A stretch of DNA of 62,635 bases, counting the filler, from Globobulimina sp. (taxonomy: Eukaryota): NCBI GenBank assembly GCA_003354225.1. It is 37 parts of 37 records of this genome, joined end to end, with 100 filler letters (N's around TTAATTAATTAA, not from the genome) between each part and the next. Parts side by side here need not be neighbours in the genome. Positions count along the whole stretch, not along the records: positions 35,618 to 37,212 come from PIVH01014356.1; positions 37,313 to 38,907 come from PIVH01014357.1; 35 more parts are not named here. The stretch is one strand, 5' to 3'. This document shows positions 27,143 through 57,304 of the stretch, one piece after another. Made by a program: the position numbers and the translations under genes. Within the stretch, counting starts at the first letter, position 1. Each line of letters opens with the position of its first letter. The notes under the pieces are model-generated. The model was not told where the DNA came from, made no database searches, and was given only the letters and a program-made list of their open reading frames with translations.

Positions 27143-28705
27143 CGCGCAAATCATCAAATATCGTCAATTTCTGTATCGATTTATAATCACTTAAAGCATC
27201 ATCTTCTTTCTTTCGGTTAAATTGTGGCAAATTTAACACTGCTTTCACATCAAATAATTTTCTATTATCCTTCAAATTATTTGGATTCTCAATCAATTTC
27301 ATACCATTATCTCCGCCCAATAAAACGAGTAAATCCGGCTGCAAATATCGAATAATATCCGCATTGCCTGAAGCTAAGACAAAATTACTTGTTTTATTGT
27401 TATATTTGCTCTTAAATTTCCTGATACATTTACTTGCCGCAGCACTCATACATCGCGCATTGGTCCTATCCAATACAGAGGTAAACTCATCCATTAATAT
27501 GATGCCATTTGGTTTACTGATACTTTCTTGCAATAATCTCGCAAAAGTTGACTTATATCTTTCGCCGGCACTCAAAATATGGTAAGGTTTCAACCACGTT
27601 CTGATATTATTTAATCCGATACTGCTCATAATATCCATTGCTGTCTCAATGGGAATGCCATCAAATTCAGATATTACACATTTATTGCGATGCCAGTGTA
27701 GATGGTCGGGGTTTTTAAACGTAATTAAAGATGGATTTTGTGCTTGTAATGATTTCAACAATGTCGATTTACCGCTTCCTGACGGTCCTACTATTAAAAT
27801 TAATGGATATTTCTCAATTTGCTGTAAGTTTAATTGACGCAAAGGTGCTTGCAATACATTTTCGGGAACCGCAGATAACTTACAATATGCTAATAATTCT
27901 GCGGTTGTGTTGGAATAATTTGGTATGACTCGATCCATTGACATGTCACTGTTATTATCAATGTCTGCATTAAAATATCTTGAATTTAACGGCGCAGATT
28001 CTTTAATGACAGTTTTTGCACCAAATTCATTTTTCTTTTTGACTTTTTCTCTTCTTTTTGCCACCAAATATCTGGAGTACTTGAATATTTTTGCTCTGTC
28101 AAACTTTATATGTTTTCGTTTGCCAATTTCTGTACAGAGTTTGACCAAATATTTATTAGTTGTAATCACTTCACCTCTCCGCACAGTGATGATAGATTTC
28201 GCAGATTTTGAATCTTTTACTTTGACAGTGACCCATTCATTATCTAATGAGCGTACATTGGTAACATCCTTACTCAGTCTTTGTGTGATTGTGGCGTCAT
28301 TATAGGCCCATAAAATATATTTGATATCAATGTTGGATAAGATAATATTTGTATGCTTTCTTGTTGTGTTTTTCTGACAGAGCCAGATATCTCCAGTTTC
28401 CTCATTGTTTACGCTGACTGGAATATATGTCTTCCAATACTTTGAGCCATTTGGTTTAATATAAAGATATGGTTTGTGCGCATGCGTTGAATTACAGATT
28501 GCGGTCAATGAGGTTCCATTTGTGCCAAAGTCGTAATTAATATTAATGTTGTCATTGTTTTCAGATTTAAGGGAGGCAAATAATACACATTTTGCAGAGT
28601 GATGACAATCTGATATTAGTATTGTAATTAATATGTGAATTCCGATAAAAACATAAAAAAAAAAAAAAAAAATAACGTTAACCAAAAACGAACAGAACTA
28701 GATTT
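27143..28705 (-). CDS. Multidomain protein containing a COG2401-like soluble ABC-ATPase; both ends partial (intron 28610-28682, 23-nt micro-exon 28683-28705)
   Basis: GPSGSGKST (27762-27788), SIGLNNIRTWLKPYHILSAGERY..FAR, MDEFTSVLDR..A, DIIRYLQPD; no TM domain. Confidence 0.8.
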
Positions 28706-35617: not shown

Positions 35618-36013
35618 AACCCAGAAAATCCAAGACATAAATTAATCGTATTAGATATTGAAGATAAAATCTCAAAAGAAGAAATCTTATTATATTTCAC
35701 ACAAGGTGCTATGGAATGGTATAGTCAAGGATTAAAAAATGTCCCAGAGAAAATCAAAAACTACAATAAAGAATTCAAGAGTTCTTGTAATAAGTTCAAA
35801 CAATTCTTAAAAATCTCAGCGATTATTGTAGAAGAAAACCAACCGGCATTCACATCATTCAGAGAATTATACGAAGCATACTGTACATTCGCTCATCCAA
35901 ATAAAATCAATATTAATGATTTCAAAACTATGGTTGAAAAGAATGGATACAAAGAAATCATTGAGGATGATATTAGTGGTTATGCTATCAAATTAAAGGA
36001 AGAAATCTACTAA
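35618..36013 (+). CDS. C-terminus of a D5/P4-type primase-helicase (viral type)
   Basis: Open from contig start: NPENPRHK..DIEDKISKEEILLYFTQGAMEWYSQGLKNVPEKI...F, then a winged-helix-like FRELYEAYCTF..FKTMVEKNGY. Confidence 0.7.
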   Translation, partial: NPENPRHKLIVLDIEDKISKEEILLYFTQGAMEWYSQGLKNVPEKIKNYNKEFKSSCNKFKQFLKISAIIVEENQPAFTSFRELYEAYCTFAHPNKININDFKTMVEKNGYKEIIEDDISGYAIKLKEEIY

Positions 36014-36036
36014 ATGATAAATTAAAAGAAAATATC

Positions 36037-36067
36037 TATGAAATATTAAATATATTTCATAAATATA
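36037..36067 (+). terminator. AT-rich intergenic hairpin with conserved 23-nt motif
   Basis: TATGAAATAT-TAAAT-ATATTTCATA 10-bp stem (36037-36061); motif ATTAAATATATTTCATAAATATA at 36045-36067. Confidence 0.6.
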
Positions 36068-36096
36068 ATATTTTATAAATTAAAATTTATTTATTT

Positions 36097-37159
36097 ATGT
36101 CTAATATACATTGTATGGAAGAACGGATTTGTTCAAATTGTGATAAATTAAAAAAACTTTATCAATTTAAAAAAAATGGAAAAATATGTAAAAATTGTAG
36201 AGATAAATGTGAACATGGTAAACGAAAAAATAGATGTAAAGATTGTAATGGTAGCCAAACATGTAAACATAGTAATGATAAATATAATTGTAAAGAATGT
36301 GGTGGAACTGGGATTTGTAAACATGGAGTAAGAAAAACTATTTGTAAGGAATGTGGTGGTAATTCAATTTGTGAACATGGAAAAAATAAAATATATTGTA
36401 AAAAATGTGGTGGTAGTAGATTATGTAAACATAATAAAGATAAATCACAATGTAAAGAATGTGGTGGTAATTCTATTTGTAAACATAATACATATAAACA
36501 AAGATGTCCAAAATGTGGTGGTTCAGCTCTTTGTAATAATTGTAAACAAATGAGAAAAAATAAAAAATACGGTGAAGGTCAAAATTGTTTTGGTTGTTAT
36601 ATTTCTTTAAATCCAGATAGTGAAGTTGCTAAAAAAAATAGAGTTTTAAAACAAGATTTAATAGATAATATATACTCAATGATGTATCCGGATTTTATTT
36701 GGGAAAGTAAAGATAAATCACAACCAAATAATTGTGGTATTAAAAGAAGGCCTGACTATTTTTTAGATTATGGAACTCATATTCTAATTTTAGAAATAGA
36801 TGAGAACCAACATAAATATTATAATAAACAATGTGAAATTGGAAGATTGAATGAAATTAGTGAAATGGTAAATGATAAACCAACTATATATATTAGATTT
36901 AATCCCGATAATTATAAAGATATTAGTGGAAATAAAGTAGAAGGTTGTTTTTATAATACTATGAATAAGTTAAATATTCACGAAGATATGATTAAAGAAA
37001 GATTAAAAGTTGTTCATCAAGAAGTTTTAAAACACATTGATTTTAATAATATTAAAGAGAATACTGAATGGAGATTTAGTTAGTCAAGTATATTTATTTT
37101 TTGATGAAAATGAAGATGTTGAAGAAATTGACGAAGAATTAAGAGAAGAAGAACAATAA
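36097..37159 (+). CDS. Zn-ribbon-repeat PD-(D/E)XK-like endonuclease of large-DNA-virus type; apparent frameshift near 37060
   Basis: Six 18-aa CxHxxxKxxCxxCGG repeats (36208-36531); RPDYFLD..LILEIDENQH..CE..RLNEI..IYIRFNPDNY; family-like tail VYLFFD lies in another frame ending TAA 37157-37159. Confidence 0.82.
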
Positions 37160-37188
37160 TTAAATATATTTCATAAATATATATTTAA
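37159..37188 (+). terminator. Second AT-rich hairpin with the same 23-nt motif
   Basis: TTAAATATAT..ATATATTTAA 10-bp stem (37160-37188); motif at 37159-37181; next ATG at 37190. Confidence 0.6.
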
Positions 37189-37902
37189 CATGAATAAAGA
37201 AAAACTTGACATNNNNNNNNNNNNNNNNNNNNNNNNNNNNNNNNNNNNNNNNNNNNTTAATTAATTAANNNNNNNNNNNNNNNNNNNNNNNNNNNNNNNN
37301 NNNNNNNNNNNNTGCAGCACCAGCTTGTGCAGGTAATGTAATTATATAAATATATTTTCCCCTTCCTTTTCTTTGCAAACAATGTTATTTTATTATGACA
37401 TCATCATACAATCGAAGATGTATAAATACTGCTTGTTTATATGGCAACGTCCATAAAGTCGATACACCATTCGTGATTTTTTGTTGTATATCGAGCATAA
37501 AGAAAGAGCTGCAAAATATGGATCTCTACTAGAAGCAAATAACATACCATACGCGGCAAGAATTGCCTTTACATAATGTATTATAGCTCATATTTTGAGC
37601 TATTTTGCGCTATTTTGCGTATTCTGCGATTGTATAGATCTTGAGATATGATCCCATCAATCTGGCAGAGTCTTAAAATGTTTTTTTTTAAATCATATTT
37701 CTGTAGTTTTATAATTTGAGAAAGACAAAGAATTATAAGCACAGGATAGCAATTGATGTGCAGATATAGGATTCGCGATCACACTGCAATTAAAATGGCC
37801 AGTTTAAAACGTTCATTGGAGTCTCAAGGTTTAAATACTCACGACAACGTGTTAGCCATTGATTGAAGAATCGAAATAATATTAGCACATTTCAAAAGTA
37901 AG

Positions 37903-39345: not shown

Positions 39346-40602
39346 TTATTCCGTTTCATCATCACATTCCTTGGTAACTCTGCCAATATTATCAATTAAC
39401 ACAGTTCTTGATTCAATTCCTAACCCAACATATTTTAAAAATAAATCGCATTTTAAATCATGTAATGATTGTCCAGTAATTGCAGATTTATTTAACATTC
39501 TTCTGAATTTATTATATTTACGATTTGATGAAAATCGTTGATTATCAATCATCATAATCCATGAAATTGCATCTTGTTTATTCCATTTTTTATACTCTTT
39601 TTCGCATTCTTTTAATTTTTCTACACGCAATTTATTCAAAGTACTCTTATTTTGCGAGTAGTATCTATTTAATATATACGTAGATTTATGAATATTTCCA
39701 ACACATTCGGATTGTTTCTCCACTAAACGCTTCATCTCATAATTACTAGTTATCTTTGTAGCTTTTAGCTCTTTTAACACATTTATAATATCTTTCTTTC
39801 TTATTTTTAATTGGTTTTGCTGTTCAATTAATTCATTTATTTGTTTTTGGTTTTCATCAATCAAATTATTAACATTTGCCATAGCATCATATTGTTTGTT
39901 TGTAGAATTTCTAAATTTTCTTTGCTTTGCGGATTTTAAATATTTTATATAATGCCCCAATGTCATTGAATTTGTGGTGGCATTTTGTTGCCTTTTTGAT
40001 AGTTTCTTGAACGAAATATTTAATTTGTGAGTAAATTGTTGATATTGGCATAATAATTTACTCGTTGATGAACATTGTAAAATTTCATTTTGCGTAATTT
40101 CAAAATCTTGATTAAATTTATCCGCTGAGTTGTTTGCATCGCCTATATTGTATACGATATATTTAAATAACATATTATTTATAATCTCATTAAAATTTGT
40201 TGTGTACGCATTGTATAAATGTATTGGTTCATCATAAGAATAATTAGTTTGTGCGCCATATGCCGCAATCCGATGGTTTTTATCTTTGCATTCTTTGACG
40301 CATTGACAAATTATTCTAATTATTTGGAATATTTCATTGCAATTTTTTATCCATTTCGATTTTATACCATTTTGTACTTGAAATTCAATATGAAGCGCAT
40401 ATCCATTTTGTGCTTTTACTGTACCTCTGTACCATTCAACATCATGCAATATGTCCAATTTATCATTTAGAGCAAACCAGCTTTTATTATAGTTTGTATA
40501 ATTTATGGTTAGGTCCCCTTTGTGTGTACCTGCGATCTCGACACTATTTCTTGTCTGAGATTGTTTATTAATTGATACTATTTCTTCTTTAATATCATCA
40601 TC
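39346..40602 (-). CDS. Tudor-like + coiled-coil + C-terminal SAM-like protein, 5' partial
   Basis: LNDKLDILHDVEWYRGTVK; long heptad region; KKWNKQDAISWI..ITGQSL. Confidence 0.6.
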   Translation of the reverse strand, partial: DDDIKEEIVSINKQSQTRNSVEIAGTHKGDLTINYTNYNKSWFALNDKLDILHDVEWYRGTVKAQNGYALHIEFQVQNGIKSKWIKNCNEIFQIIRIICQCVKECKDKNHRIAAYGAQTNYSYDEPIHLYNAYTTNFNEIINNMLFKYIVYNIGDANNSADKFNQDFEITQNEILQCSSTSKLLCQYQQFTHKLNISFKKLSKRQQNATTNSMTLGHYIKYLKSAKQRKFRNSTNKQYDAMANVNNLIDENQKQINELIEQQNQLKIRKKDIINVLKELKATKITSNYEMKRLVEKQSECVGNIHKSTYILNRYYSQNKSTLNKLRVEKLKECEKEYKKWNKQDAISWIMMIDNQRFSSNRKYNKFRRMLNKSAITGQSLHDLKCDLFLKYVGLGIESRTVLIDNIGRVTKECDDETE

Positions 40603-55957: not shown

Positions 55958-57304
55958 TATAGTTATAGTGACAGTGTTGAATGGATTGTCCAATTTATCG
56001 CAGAAGGCAAACCTCCCGCTACTAAACTATCAAAACCTACACCCATTAAATGCAAAAGTAAAAAACAGAAAAAAAAGGGAAAAAAAGAATGCAATATAAT
56101 TGAAATTAAAAGTAAAACACAGACAAGAAACCAAAAACGAAAAATCAAAATCAAGCTCAGAAAAACAAAAAAAAAGAGAGAATTTCAAACTGTAATTGTT
56201 GATACTCCGCATGGCTCTAATTTGACAGTTAAATATCTGACAAATATTAAATTATGGGATAAGTATAAATGTCTTATATTTGGATTGCAATTTGAAGAGA
56301 AACAAATTTTATTTATTAATAATTTAGCCTCGAAAGAATGGTTTGGAAAATTTGGTAATATCTTAAATATTTTTATGCTTAAAAATAGTAACTGTGTAGA
56401 AATAGAATTTGAAAATGAATATTCAACATTAAACGCGATTTCTTATTGCAATAAGGATTCGAGTACAAGATTAAGAGCACGTTATCAAATAACTAAGTAT
56501 TGTAAAATATTTTTAATGCACGCAAATCAGCAAAAAAAAATAACAAAATGTTTTAATAAATGCTGTCGTGACATACATTCATGGCAGACTCCAAATGATG
56601 TCGTATCGGAAAAACAATTTTCAAAAATTAATACAAAGGACCTTCACACTTTCAAATTGAAAACAACAATGTATCATAATAATGAATGTAAAAATGTTGC
56701 TGAAAATGACGTGAAGCAATCTGAACAACTTCAGGTAAAATGTCAACAACAAAGACAAGAAATAATGCATTTAAAAACAGAATTATGTAAATATTTGCAA
56801 GAGATTGAACATTATAAACAAAAATGTGATATGCTACAAACGGAAATTAGTAAAAATATTAATAATTTATGCGAAGAAAAGTTTAAATGTTGGTTGTGTG
56901 AAGTGGTGGGATTGAAAGAATATTTATCAATATTTGTAAACAATGAATATAATGATATTACAATGATTGAATATATTGATCAGGATGTAATTGTAAATGA
57001 ATTGGGGATCACTAATAAAAGGCATATACAATTATTAGTGACTCATGTTGAAGAATTTAAACATATGAGACAAAAATTTAATGCATTAATGACAAGAAAT
57101 AAAATTTTAAAACAATTTGAACAAAACTTGATTGAAAATGGTATATTAACAATTAATGATTTAAAGAAAGATATAAACTCTAAAGCAGATACAAAACGAA
57201 TATTAAAAATAAATAATCAAAACGAAATACAACACATTTTAAGTATCATTAAACTTATTGAATTGTCGTCAAATGTTAATGATAACAAGTCCGTACTTAG
57301 TTGA
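55958..57304 (+). CDS. NOT4-like RRM + CCCH finger fused to coiled coil and SAM domains, 5' partial
   Basis: KEWFGKFGNI, LRARYQITKYCKIFL..KCFNKCCRDIH; WLCEVVGLKEYLSIF..ELGITNKRH. Confidence 0.7.
   Translation, partial: YSYSDSVEWIVQFIAEGKPPATKLSKPTPIKCKSKKQKKKGKKECNIIEIKSKTQTRNQKRKIKIKLRKTKKKREFQTVIVDTPHGSNLTVKYLTNIKLWDKYKCLIFGLQFEEKQILFINNLASKEWFGKFGNILNIFMLKNSNCVEIEFENEYSTLNAISYCNKDSSTRLRARYQITKYCKIFLMHANQQKKITKCFNKCCRDIHSWQTPNDVVSEKQFSKINTKDLHTFKLKTTMYHNNECKNVAENDVKQSEQLQVKCQQQRQEIMHLKTELCKYLQEIEHYKQKCDMLQTEISKNINNLCEEKFKCWLCEVVGLKEYLSIFVNNEYNDITMIEYIDQDVIVNELGITNKRHIQLLVTHVEEFKHMRQKFNALMTRNKILKQFEQNLIENGILTINDLKKDINSKADTKRILKINNQNEIQHILSIIKLIELSSNVNDNKSVLS

Follow-up and report, generated by a model that had tools for sequence, protein, structure and literature searches.

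Gene content of the contig

We examined a contig of 1595 bp (PIVH01014356.1, positions 35618-37212) in the assembly GCA_003354225.1 of the foraminiferan Globobulimina sp., with emphasis on its second open reading frame (ORF2), which encodes a predicted nuclease preceded by Cys/His repeats and is bracketed by two copies of a 23-nt direct repeat. The window, i.e. the whole stretch of DNA that was analysed, comprises 62,635 bases and consists of 37 contigs of 1594-1597 bp, sorted by length and separated by spacers of 44 N, TTAATTAATTAA and 44 N. Since the window is a concatenation of separate contigs, the sequence adjoining 35618-37212 is unrelated to the contig studied here. All positions given below are counted along the window.

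Three closely packed reading frames are found on the plus strand of this contig. ORF1 (35618-36013) is 5'-open, being cut by the contig end, and comprises 131 codons and a stop; it was assigned to the 3' end of a D5-type primase-helicase gene. ORF2 (36097-37083 in frame A, 328 amino acids, aa) combines a Cys/His repeat array with a predicted Vsr/DUF559-like PD-(D/E)xK nuclease domain and is shortened by a frameshift. Gene 3 begins with an ATG and is cut by the contig end after seven codons (MNKEKLD..., 37190-37212). The gaps between the three genes are of 83 nt and 30 nt, and this compact, intronless and AT-rich layout is set apart from that of the other contigs by GC content and ORF spacing, the GC content of 24.1 % being the lowest of the 37 contigs (range 24.1-46.6 %). 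A preliminary description, made from the sequence alone, had singled out this contig as extremely AT-rich and unlike the rest, with same-strand genes 30-85 nt apart and a third ATG at 37190, and the ORF map agrees with it on each of these points.

ORF1 and the D5-type primase-helicases

The preliminary description had seen in ORF1 a primase-helicase-like tail, an assignment upheld by profile matches, by the domains of its relatives and by one very close homologue. PHROG DNA-primase profiles matched ORF1 via their C-terminal ends (best phrog_1156, E 1.3e-7, profile positions 700-807 of 855), and a phmmer search of 1.84 billion representatives returned 17 proteins at E<=1e-3. Among the homologues, P0122, a metagenomic fragment of 420 aa, was 92 % identical to ORF1 across all 131 residues and P0123 (841 aa) was 53 % identical, ORF1 aligning in both cases to the extreme C-terminus. 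D5_N and DUF5906 (SF3 helicase region) were present in all eight ORF1 relatives scanned, the AEP_C962R primase domain in three of the eight and PriCT-2 in four, in one of them at E 0.001.

Single-query searches of viral contigs with the ORF1 tail or with P0123 gave no confirmed relative; an alignment query succeeded and 80 IMG/VR loci were retained. Five of them (L099-L103), four of which bear GVMAG names, cover nearly all 841 residues at 29-39 % identity, and in the other 75 the match is confined to the C-terminal helicase half (24-30 % identity). In L099, the D5 gene is surrounded by genes for topoisomerase II, a RING protein, a WLM protease and PCNA. In a large protein collection, the 21 closest proteins were all metagenomic, with lengths of 841-867 aa and identities of 34-56 %.

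These data also bear on the possibility that the contig derives from a Polinton-like virus, a virophage or a bacterial prophage. P4-type primases of phages and plasmids also have D5_N/SF3 modules, the C-terminal half of P0123 is matched by 937 phage records, and bacterial P4-family primases, Streptomyces among them, come next after the 21 closest proteins, at 23-28 % identity. However, these 21 proteins greatly exceed the bacterial matches in identity, coverage of P0123 by phage primases does not go beyond about 51 % (at ~26 % identity), none of the 937 records covers 80 % or more of it, and full-length D5 matches occur only on giant-virus-type contigs among the 80 retained loci. We consider such an origin highly improbable. 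Because full-length relatives sit on giant-virus contigs and phage primases match half of the protein only, ORF1 is, as judged by sequence similarity, the C-terminal end of a D5-type primase-helicase of giant viruses, its lineage being without a named representative in the set of relatives found.

Compared with the D5-type proteins of nucleocytoplasmic large DNA viruses (NCLDV), i.e. vaccinia D5 and African swine fever virus C962R, which combine an AEP primase, PriCT-2, D5_N and an SF3 helicase, ORF1 aligns to the C-terminal end of 841-889-aa proteins so built. It differs in that only the tail lies in the window, in that P0122 and P0123 have D5_N and DUF5906 without a significant AEP_C962R match, and in that no named virus is found among its close relatives.

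The 23-nt repeat and an ORF2-less variant

The 23-nt motif ATTAAATATATTTCATAAATATA occurs exactly twice in the window, as a direct repeat bracketing ORF2. Copy 1 (36045-36067, plus strand) lies 29 nt upstream of the ORF2 ATG; copy 2 (37159-37181, plus strand) overlaps the last base of the ORF2 stop and lies 8 nt upstream of the gene-3 ATG. In 100 shuffles of the window, a pair of matches to the motif at <=3 mismatches never arose. The exact 23-mer had no match in the viral contig collection and none at <=2 mismatches in 178 fetched loci (1.85 Mb), where 17 matches at 3-4 mismatches were read as AT-rich chance matches.

In both spacers, the repeat overlaps AT-rich hairpins, with different partners, which fold weakly better than shuffles (z -1.97 and -1.34). 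The hairpin at 36036-36060 (plus strand), 22 nt past the ORF1 stop, has a 10-bp stem and a 5-nt loop, its 3' arm being inside repeat copy 1; 8 of 200 shuffles fold as well, so that support for it is weak. AT-rich hairpins mark transcript 3' ends in mimiviruses. The 23-nt element is most likely a gene-boundary signal, i.e. a promoter directly ahead of the ATG, part of a 3'-end hairpin, or both. No RNA run was found among the listed runs sharing words with the contig.

Logan contigs of several runs, X1, X2 and X3 among them, were aligned to the contig, and the results given here and below are those among the matches listed. Run X1 accounts for 64 % of the contig's sampled words and is possibly the source sample. 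In this run, the D5 tail is represented by several variant contigs with depths of 9-56, and the unique part of ORF2 has a depth of 3.8-4.1. One X1 contig (record 6, 459 nt, depth 46.3) matches 35903-36067, ending with the final base of repeat copy 1, and diverges from there on. For the initial 30 letters of its loose end, the best alignment is to 37184-37209, immediately past repeat copy 2 and across the gene-3 ATG, without gap and with 23 of 26 positions identical; the score of this alignment is 20, as against a maximum of 18 in 500 shuffles. From these alignments, the abundant X1 variant is read as having the order D5, repeat, gene 3, and as lacking a 1114-bp unit (36068-37181, plus strand) made of ORF2 and one repeat copy. 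Other X1 similarity breakpoints also fall at the repeat edges, at 36043 and 37157. Presence/absence polymorphism of ORF2 at one locus is in this way observed, on one contig. Because the commoner X1 variant runs from D5 through the repeat to gene 3 without ORF2, this gene appears dispensable at the locus, and it is possibly mobile. The bracketing of ORF2 by the motif and its absence from the commoner variant are both new relative to the preliminary description.

The repeat also raises the question of an assembly chimera, in which the contig would have been joined at the 23-nt motif and D5, ORF2 and gene 3 would not be true neighbours. A short-k assembler could be misled by a repeat of this length, ORF2 depth is only ~4x and no listed Logan contig passes from repeat copy 1 into ORF2 with the exact upstream sequence of the window. 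However, the X1 contig that matches from 36043 has AATGATA at the far end of 30 loose letters, as the window has just past the D5 stop, and because of this shared heptamer it is probably a D5-linked variant. Further, an X1 contig of depth 3.1, with small insertions at 37182-37187 just past repeat copy 2, probably supports the ORF2-repeat-gene 3 junction. On balance, we regard a chimera as improbable.

The variant contigs show no differences in 36030-36067, and 36010-36029 is variable, which hints that segment 36030-36067 is under constraint. At least three variants of the D5 tail (35618-36067) co-occur in X1, with a 7-nt insertion behind 36029 and, in one of them, small deletions clustered at 35821-35834, which indicates viral microdiversity or several copies.

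Repeat array and predicted nuclease domain of ORF2

The N-terminal half of ORF2 contains Cys/His tandem repeats of 54 nt (18 aa) with the pattern C-x-H-x6-C-x2-C-G-G (36208-36540, plus strand), of which six units are full (residues 38-145); a repeat finder returned the same 54-nt period, with 5.1 copies over 36262-36536. The pattern RPD..E.DE.QH..IRFNPD is also present, residues D220, E233, D235, E236, H239, R267, N269 and D271 being invariant in 121 aligned sequences of the family and E247 almost invariant in them. The period of the array and the invariant residues bear out the combination of zinc-type repeats and nuclease pattern that had been pointed out before. The repeats are probably zinc-binding and EsV-1-7-like, and are predicted to bind DNA. 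Tandem C-x-H...C-x2-C units are a feature that ORF2 shares with the EsV-1-7 proteins (PF19114) of phaeoviruses, brown algae and other giant viruses, but the Pfam model PF19114 does not match ORF2 and matches one only of the 121 members. In several of the ESM-Atlas clusters nearest to ORF2, PF19114 is carried by 69-99 % of members; the nearest clusters as a group are 93-100 % viral, most commonly from Nucleocytoviricota. The available text of PMC12477816 describes the EsV-1-7 domain as a possible zinc finger, known mostly from Nucleocytoviricota.

The AlphaFold model of ORF2 has a mean predicted local distance difference test score (pLDDT) of 81.2, with a confident repeat array at residues 40-170 (pLDDT >90) and an alpha-beta domain at residues of about 180-324. 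With this model, Foldseek gave no match at E<=1e-3 against the PDB; the weak top rows were nearly all PD-(D/E)xK nucleases, i.e. the R2 retrotransposon endonuclease, bunyavirus and arenavirus cap-snatching endonucleases and a Cas4-family protein. Sequence searches of the PDB, a profile search included, gave no relevant match. A fold search independent of Foldseek placed on top, in each case over ORF2 residues ~182-324, the FASTKD4 RAP domain (Z 7.0), I-Bth0305I (Z 6.8, 96 of 98 residues), Bax1 (Z 6.5), NGO0050 (Z 6.2) and Vsr (Z 5.5). With P0008, an intact relative, as query, I-Bth0305I came first at Z 7.0 and Vsr reached 6.2; across both queries, NGO0050 scored 6.1-6.2 and the RAP domain 6.4-7.0. 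We propose that the C-terminal half of ORF2 is a Vsr/DUF559-like PD-(D/E)xK nuclease domain, a prediction from structural models for which the list of folds is coherent though the Z-scores are middling.

The best solved-structure match to this predicted domain is I-Bth0305I (Z 6.8-7.0, 96 of 98 residues). According to the accessible part of the paper that defined the Vsr-like EDxHD homing endonucleases with this enzyme (PMC3239194), its active site is formed by D196, H213 and D222, and the D220-x18-H239-x7-E247 spacing of ORF2 would be compatible with the D196-x16-H213-x8-D222 spacing there, from sequence positions and not from a superposition. As far as that text describes I-Bth0305I, both proteins are modular, with an N-terminal part presumed to bind DNA and a C-terminal Vsr-like nuclease. 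They differ in several respects: identity is 12-14 %; the N-terminus is a Cys/His array in ORF2 and NUMOD/HTH (helix-turn-helix) in I-Bth0305I; and ORF2 is a free-standing gene of a eukaryotic virus, placed in an intergenic spacer and not in a phage intron or intein, its nuclease activity and homing being putative.

Against BFVD, the ORF2 model gave 27 Foldseek matches at E<=1e-3, and all the named ones are from giant viruses or from giant-virus metagenome-assembled genomes (MAGs). Many bear the name 'Endonuclease', and one, from a Marseillevirus-like MAG (E 6.3e-7), is a 'DUF559 domain-containing protein'. These proteins (from Pithovirus-like LCPAC, Marseillevirus-like LCMAC, Faunusvirus and Cedratvirus) match ORF2 at E 1.3e-17 to 6.3e-7 and 21-36 % identity, and some of the matches cover both the repeat array and the nuclease domain. 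In contrast to them, ORF2 is frameshifted and presence-polymorphic; their names are database labels, and we know of no tested function for any of them.

Distribution and context of the ORF2 family

At least 1907 homologues of ORF2 were obtained at E<=1e-3 among 2775 candidates, the closest being P0027 (67 % identity over 74 % of the query) and P0008 (61 % over 95 %). Relatives were found on viral contigs of up to 548 kb. The IMG/VR record of 548,097 bp (G001, the record of locus L018) carries ten dispersed copies of the nuclease domain, all uninterrupted, in open frames of 397-546 aa. The family is abundant and multi-copy in giant viruses. The ten copies on this record represent a sizeable paralogue family inside one giant-virus genome.

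The ORFs directly flanking family members were surveyed in 98 loci (L001-L098). Ten of the 125 distinct flanking ORFs encode NCLDV major capsid proteins, a share that seems high as a raw count. The remaining flanking ORFs are spread across 64 Pfam families and, because the non-capsid neighbours scatter in this way, the family has no fixed neighbourhood. ORF2 itself had no match in 50,697 phage records, and this result, like the adjacency of its family to NCLDV capsid genes, also speaks against a prophage or Polinton-like origin of the contig. A D5-like gene was present inside the 20-kb locus in 2 of 98 cases and never adjacent, and D5 adjacency was rejected as a trait of the family.

Several other neighbours were recorded. 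In L001, the surroundings of the family copy include genes for ribonucleotide reductase (RNR), an A22-type resolvase, an FtsJ methyltransferase, a SNF2-type helicase and a NUDIX gene; the ORF of the RNR large subunit (L001:3-2247) ends 7 nt ahead of the ORF2-family gene, and its Pfam match spans only profile positions 175-312 of 523. In some phages, RNR genes are interrupted by homing endonuclease genes. Additionally, two of the 125 flanking ORFs are GIY-YIG/NUMOD homing-endonuclease-like and two more carry EsV-1-7 repeats.

The frameshift at the 3' end of ORF2

Frame A of ORF2 ends ...IKENTEWRFS at 37083. The +1 frame is open over 37037-37159 and reads ...LNGDLVSQVYLFFDENEDVEEIDEELREEEQ; the two frames meet at about 37060-37061, and comparison of the translations with P0008 and P0027 places the one-base shift at 37057-37064 (plus strand). 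The closest relatives end ...DNLIGQVYLFFDEYDD (P0008) and ...NNLIHQIYLFFDKIDY (P0027), and the corresponding segment of the contig, the conserved C-terminal strand VYLFFD followed by an acidic tail, is found in the +1 frame (37061-37159, plus strand, stop 37157-37159). A [LIVM][FY][FY] motif occurs 57-67 residues past RFNPD in 117 of the 120 best homologues. In the model of the intact P0008, the same segment forms a beta-strand (residues 321-326; the blocks containing it have a mean pLDDT of 92-94), and reading through the shift in ORF2 restores the spacing of P0008.

The terminal motif of the +1 frame, kept in so many homologues, substantiates at the sequence level the frameshift near 37060 that the preliminary description had reported. 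A simple sequencing error is less likely because the site is outside any long homopolymer, and we consider it fairly probable that the frameshift is a real mutation.

Origin of the contig

An NCLDV hallmark replication gene is present on the contig, in the form of the 131-residue D5-type tail. The preliminary description had suggested a large DNA virus or a Polinton/virophage-like element, and had called for comparing both proteins with viral and cellular sets. Profile and sequence searches of both proteins against viral, phage and cellular sets favoured giant-virus relatives. The first part of the suggestion stands, the D5 relatives being on giant-virus contigs and the ORF2 family beside NCLDV capsids. 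The second does not: the contexts are those of giant viruses and no Polinton or virophage hallmark (pPolB, integrase, capsid pair, ATPase or protease) is found on the contig, the contigs of the relatives being of 40-548 kb with NCLDV capsid, TopoII and PCNA.

We further asked whether the contig could be an endogenised, decaying giant-virus insertion in the nuclear genome of the protist. It was co-assembled with eukaryote-like contigs (RCC1, DHHC and SAM domains), ORF2 is frameshifted and several divergent copies of the D5 tail are present in one sample, as would suit such an insertion. On the other hand, the contig contains no host-virus junction, the two remaining reading frames are intact, the D5 tail shares 92 % identity with a metagenomic protein of independent origin, and the GC content of 24.1 % is apart from that of the other 36 contigs. 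In addition, two further studies have sediment metagenomes with near-identical pieces of the D5 tail (X2, 0-2 differences over 60-127 nt; X3, one difference over 152 nt). The presence of several haplotypes in one sample would also favour a free or co-sampled virus. None of these points is decisive on either side; we hold endogenisation to be unlikely.

Other contigs of the window were inspected for comparison. The longest ORFs of ten of them, submitted to a domain scan, yielded RCC1, DHHC palmitoyltransferase, SAM and lysine methyltransferase domains, or nothing, and no viral hallmark. A 518-aa open frame (27144-28697, minus strand) fills one contig and has weak P-loop ATPase matches (best ABC_tran, E 8.5e-7). 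Two AT-rich contigs (27-28 % GC) are each nearly filled by one ORF, of 418 aa (39349-40602, minus strand, no Pfam match) and of 448 aa (55958-57301, plus strand, a SAM domain as sole match), and nothing ties them to the virus. The sole Rfam match of the window is a tRNA on an unrelated contig (54304-54385, minus strand, 29.7 bits for a gathering score of 29); no Rfam family was found on contig 35618-37212.

A repeat-bracketed, dispensable nuclease gene

Taken jointly, the data lead us to read the contig, with a probability of roughly 0.7, as a fragment of a Nucleocytoviricota genome sequenced alongside the protist and carrying a D5 tail, a dispensable repeat-bracketed ORF2 and the start of gene 3. 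Within this reading, ORF2 may be a free-standing homing-endonuclease-like selfish gene in its decay phase, a tentative proposal to which we give just under an even chance. Such a gene would have entered the intergenic spacer beside a conserved replication gene, bringing or duplicating the short upstream 23-nt element; in the decay phase, the one-base frameshift near 37060 would then have removed the conserved terminal beta-strand.

The same arrangement could result from a deletion, ORF2 being an ordinary accessory gene that recombination or slippage between neighbouring 23-nt copies removed in the lineage that is now abundant, the 23-nt element being then a promoter or terminator signal that would recur at many gene boundaries of this virus. 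Each of the two ATGs is closely preceded by the repeat (at 29 nt and 8 nt), shared intergenic flanks of >=20 nt are found around 11 of 974 control ORFs (~1 %) of giant-virus loci and around none of 83 family genes elsewhere, and the ten copies on one viral contig are all intact, all of which favours this reading. Homing is favoured over deletion by the predicted nuclease of ORF2, which belongs to a fold class that includes a proven homing endonuclease, and by its position next to a conserved replication gene together with its frameshift, as expected late in the cycle of a selfish gene. The absence of the motif from viral contigs (exact) and from the 178 loci (<=2 mismatches) also counts against a boundary signal, these sets holding no other contig of this virus. 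Deletion is in our view a serious possibility that falls short of being probable.

Several observations weigh against the proposed viral fragment with its mobile, decaying nuclease gene. (i) The 1595-bp contig is without a capsid, PolB or A32 gene. (ii) The empty site is documented by one Logan contig and 30 letters of its loose end, and no listed Logan contig reproduces the exact succession of D5, repeat copy 1 and ORF2 seen in the window. (iii) The X1 Logan contigs leave 36968-37075 uncovered, the frameshift site being inside, so that an assembly error is possible; those of X2 have no cover over 36536-37021. (iv) The Z-scores of 5.5-7 in the fold search fall in the middling range of the tool, and no Pfam model, any DUF559 model included, covers the nuclease half in any of the 121 members at E<=0.1, Hjc aside, which is the sole Pfam nuclease model matching (E 0.048, 2 of 121 members). 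(v) All ten copies on the 548-kb contig are open, a pattern that a maintained gene family would show no less than a selfish one. (vi) Flanking direct repeats were rejected as a trait of the family, a shared flank of >=15 nt being found in 0 of 83 family genes and in 22 of 974 control ORFs.

The proposed homing gene resembles the free-standing homing endonucleases of T4-like phages (such as mobE), which, in the text available of PMC2790892, are nuclease genes in spacers beside DNA-metabolism genes, present or absent across genomes. The phage enzymes have HNH or GIY-YIG folds whereas ORF2 is predicted to be Vsr-like, a flanking 23-nt direct repeat is atypical of them, and cleavage by ORF2 is putative.

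A bolder idea, which we put forward as doubtful, is that giant-virus proteins combining EsV-1-7-type repeats with a Vsr-like nuclease form a large unrecognised class of free-standing homing endonucleases of eukaryotic viruses, amounting to zinc-repeat nucleases of natural origin. Target length would depend on how many modules a protein has, six in ORF2 and more in relatives reaching 546 aa, and the contig would be a filled site, in decay, beside an empty one of the same viral population.

Novelty and significance

A giant-virus fragment in the assembly of a protist is a common and known kind of find, and the ORF2 family already bears the automatic name 'Endonuclease' in giant-virus MAGs. In the literature searched, the coverage of which is incomplete and excludes supplements, no paper was found that describes the ORF2 family as a giant-virus homing endonuclease, and none, again with incomplete coverage, that has foraminifera and giant viruses both in title or abstract. 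Foraminifera are not mentioned in the available part of Gallot-Lavallee and Blanc 2017 (PMC5294986), nor are foraminifera or Rhizaria in that of a 2025 preprint on endogenous dsDNA viral elements (10.1101/2025.04.19.649669). What is new here is modest: the data suggest a filled/empty pair for the ORF2 family and, with it, the idea that giant-virus nucleases of the Cys-repeat and Vsr-like type are mobile.

The contig marks a giant-virus population in the sample, with several co-occurring haplotypes and close D5 relatives that are solely metagenomic. If a link to the host were shown, this would add a virus-host pair for a poorly sampled group of protists. For the ORF2 family, the filled/empty pair offers a cheap and concrete test of whether an abundant, uncurated family of at least 1907 members is selfish and mobile, and it also bears on whether the repeat array of ORF2 reads DNA sequence.

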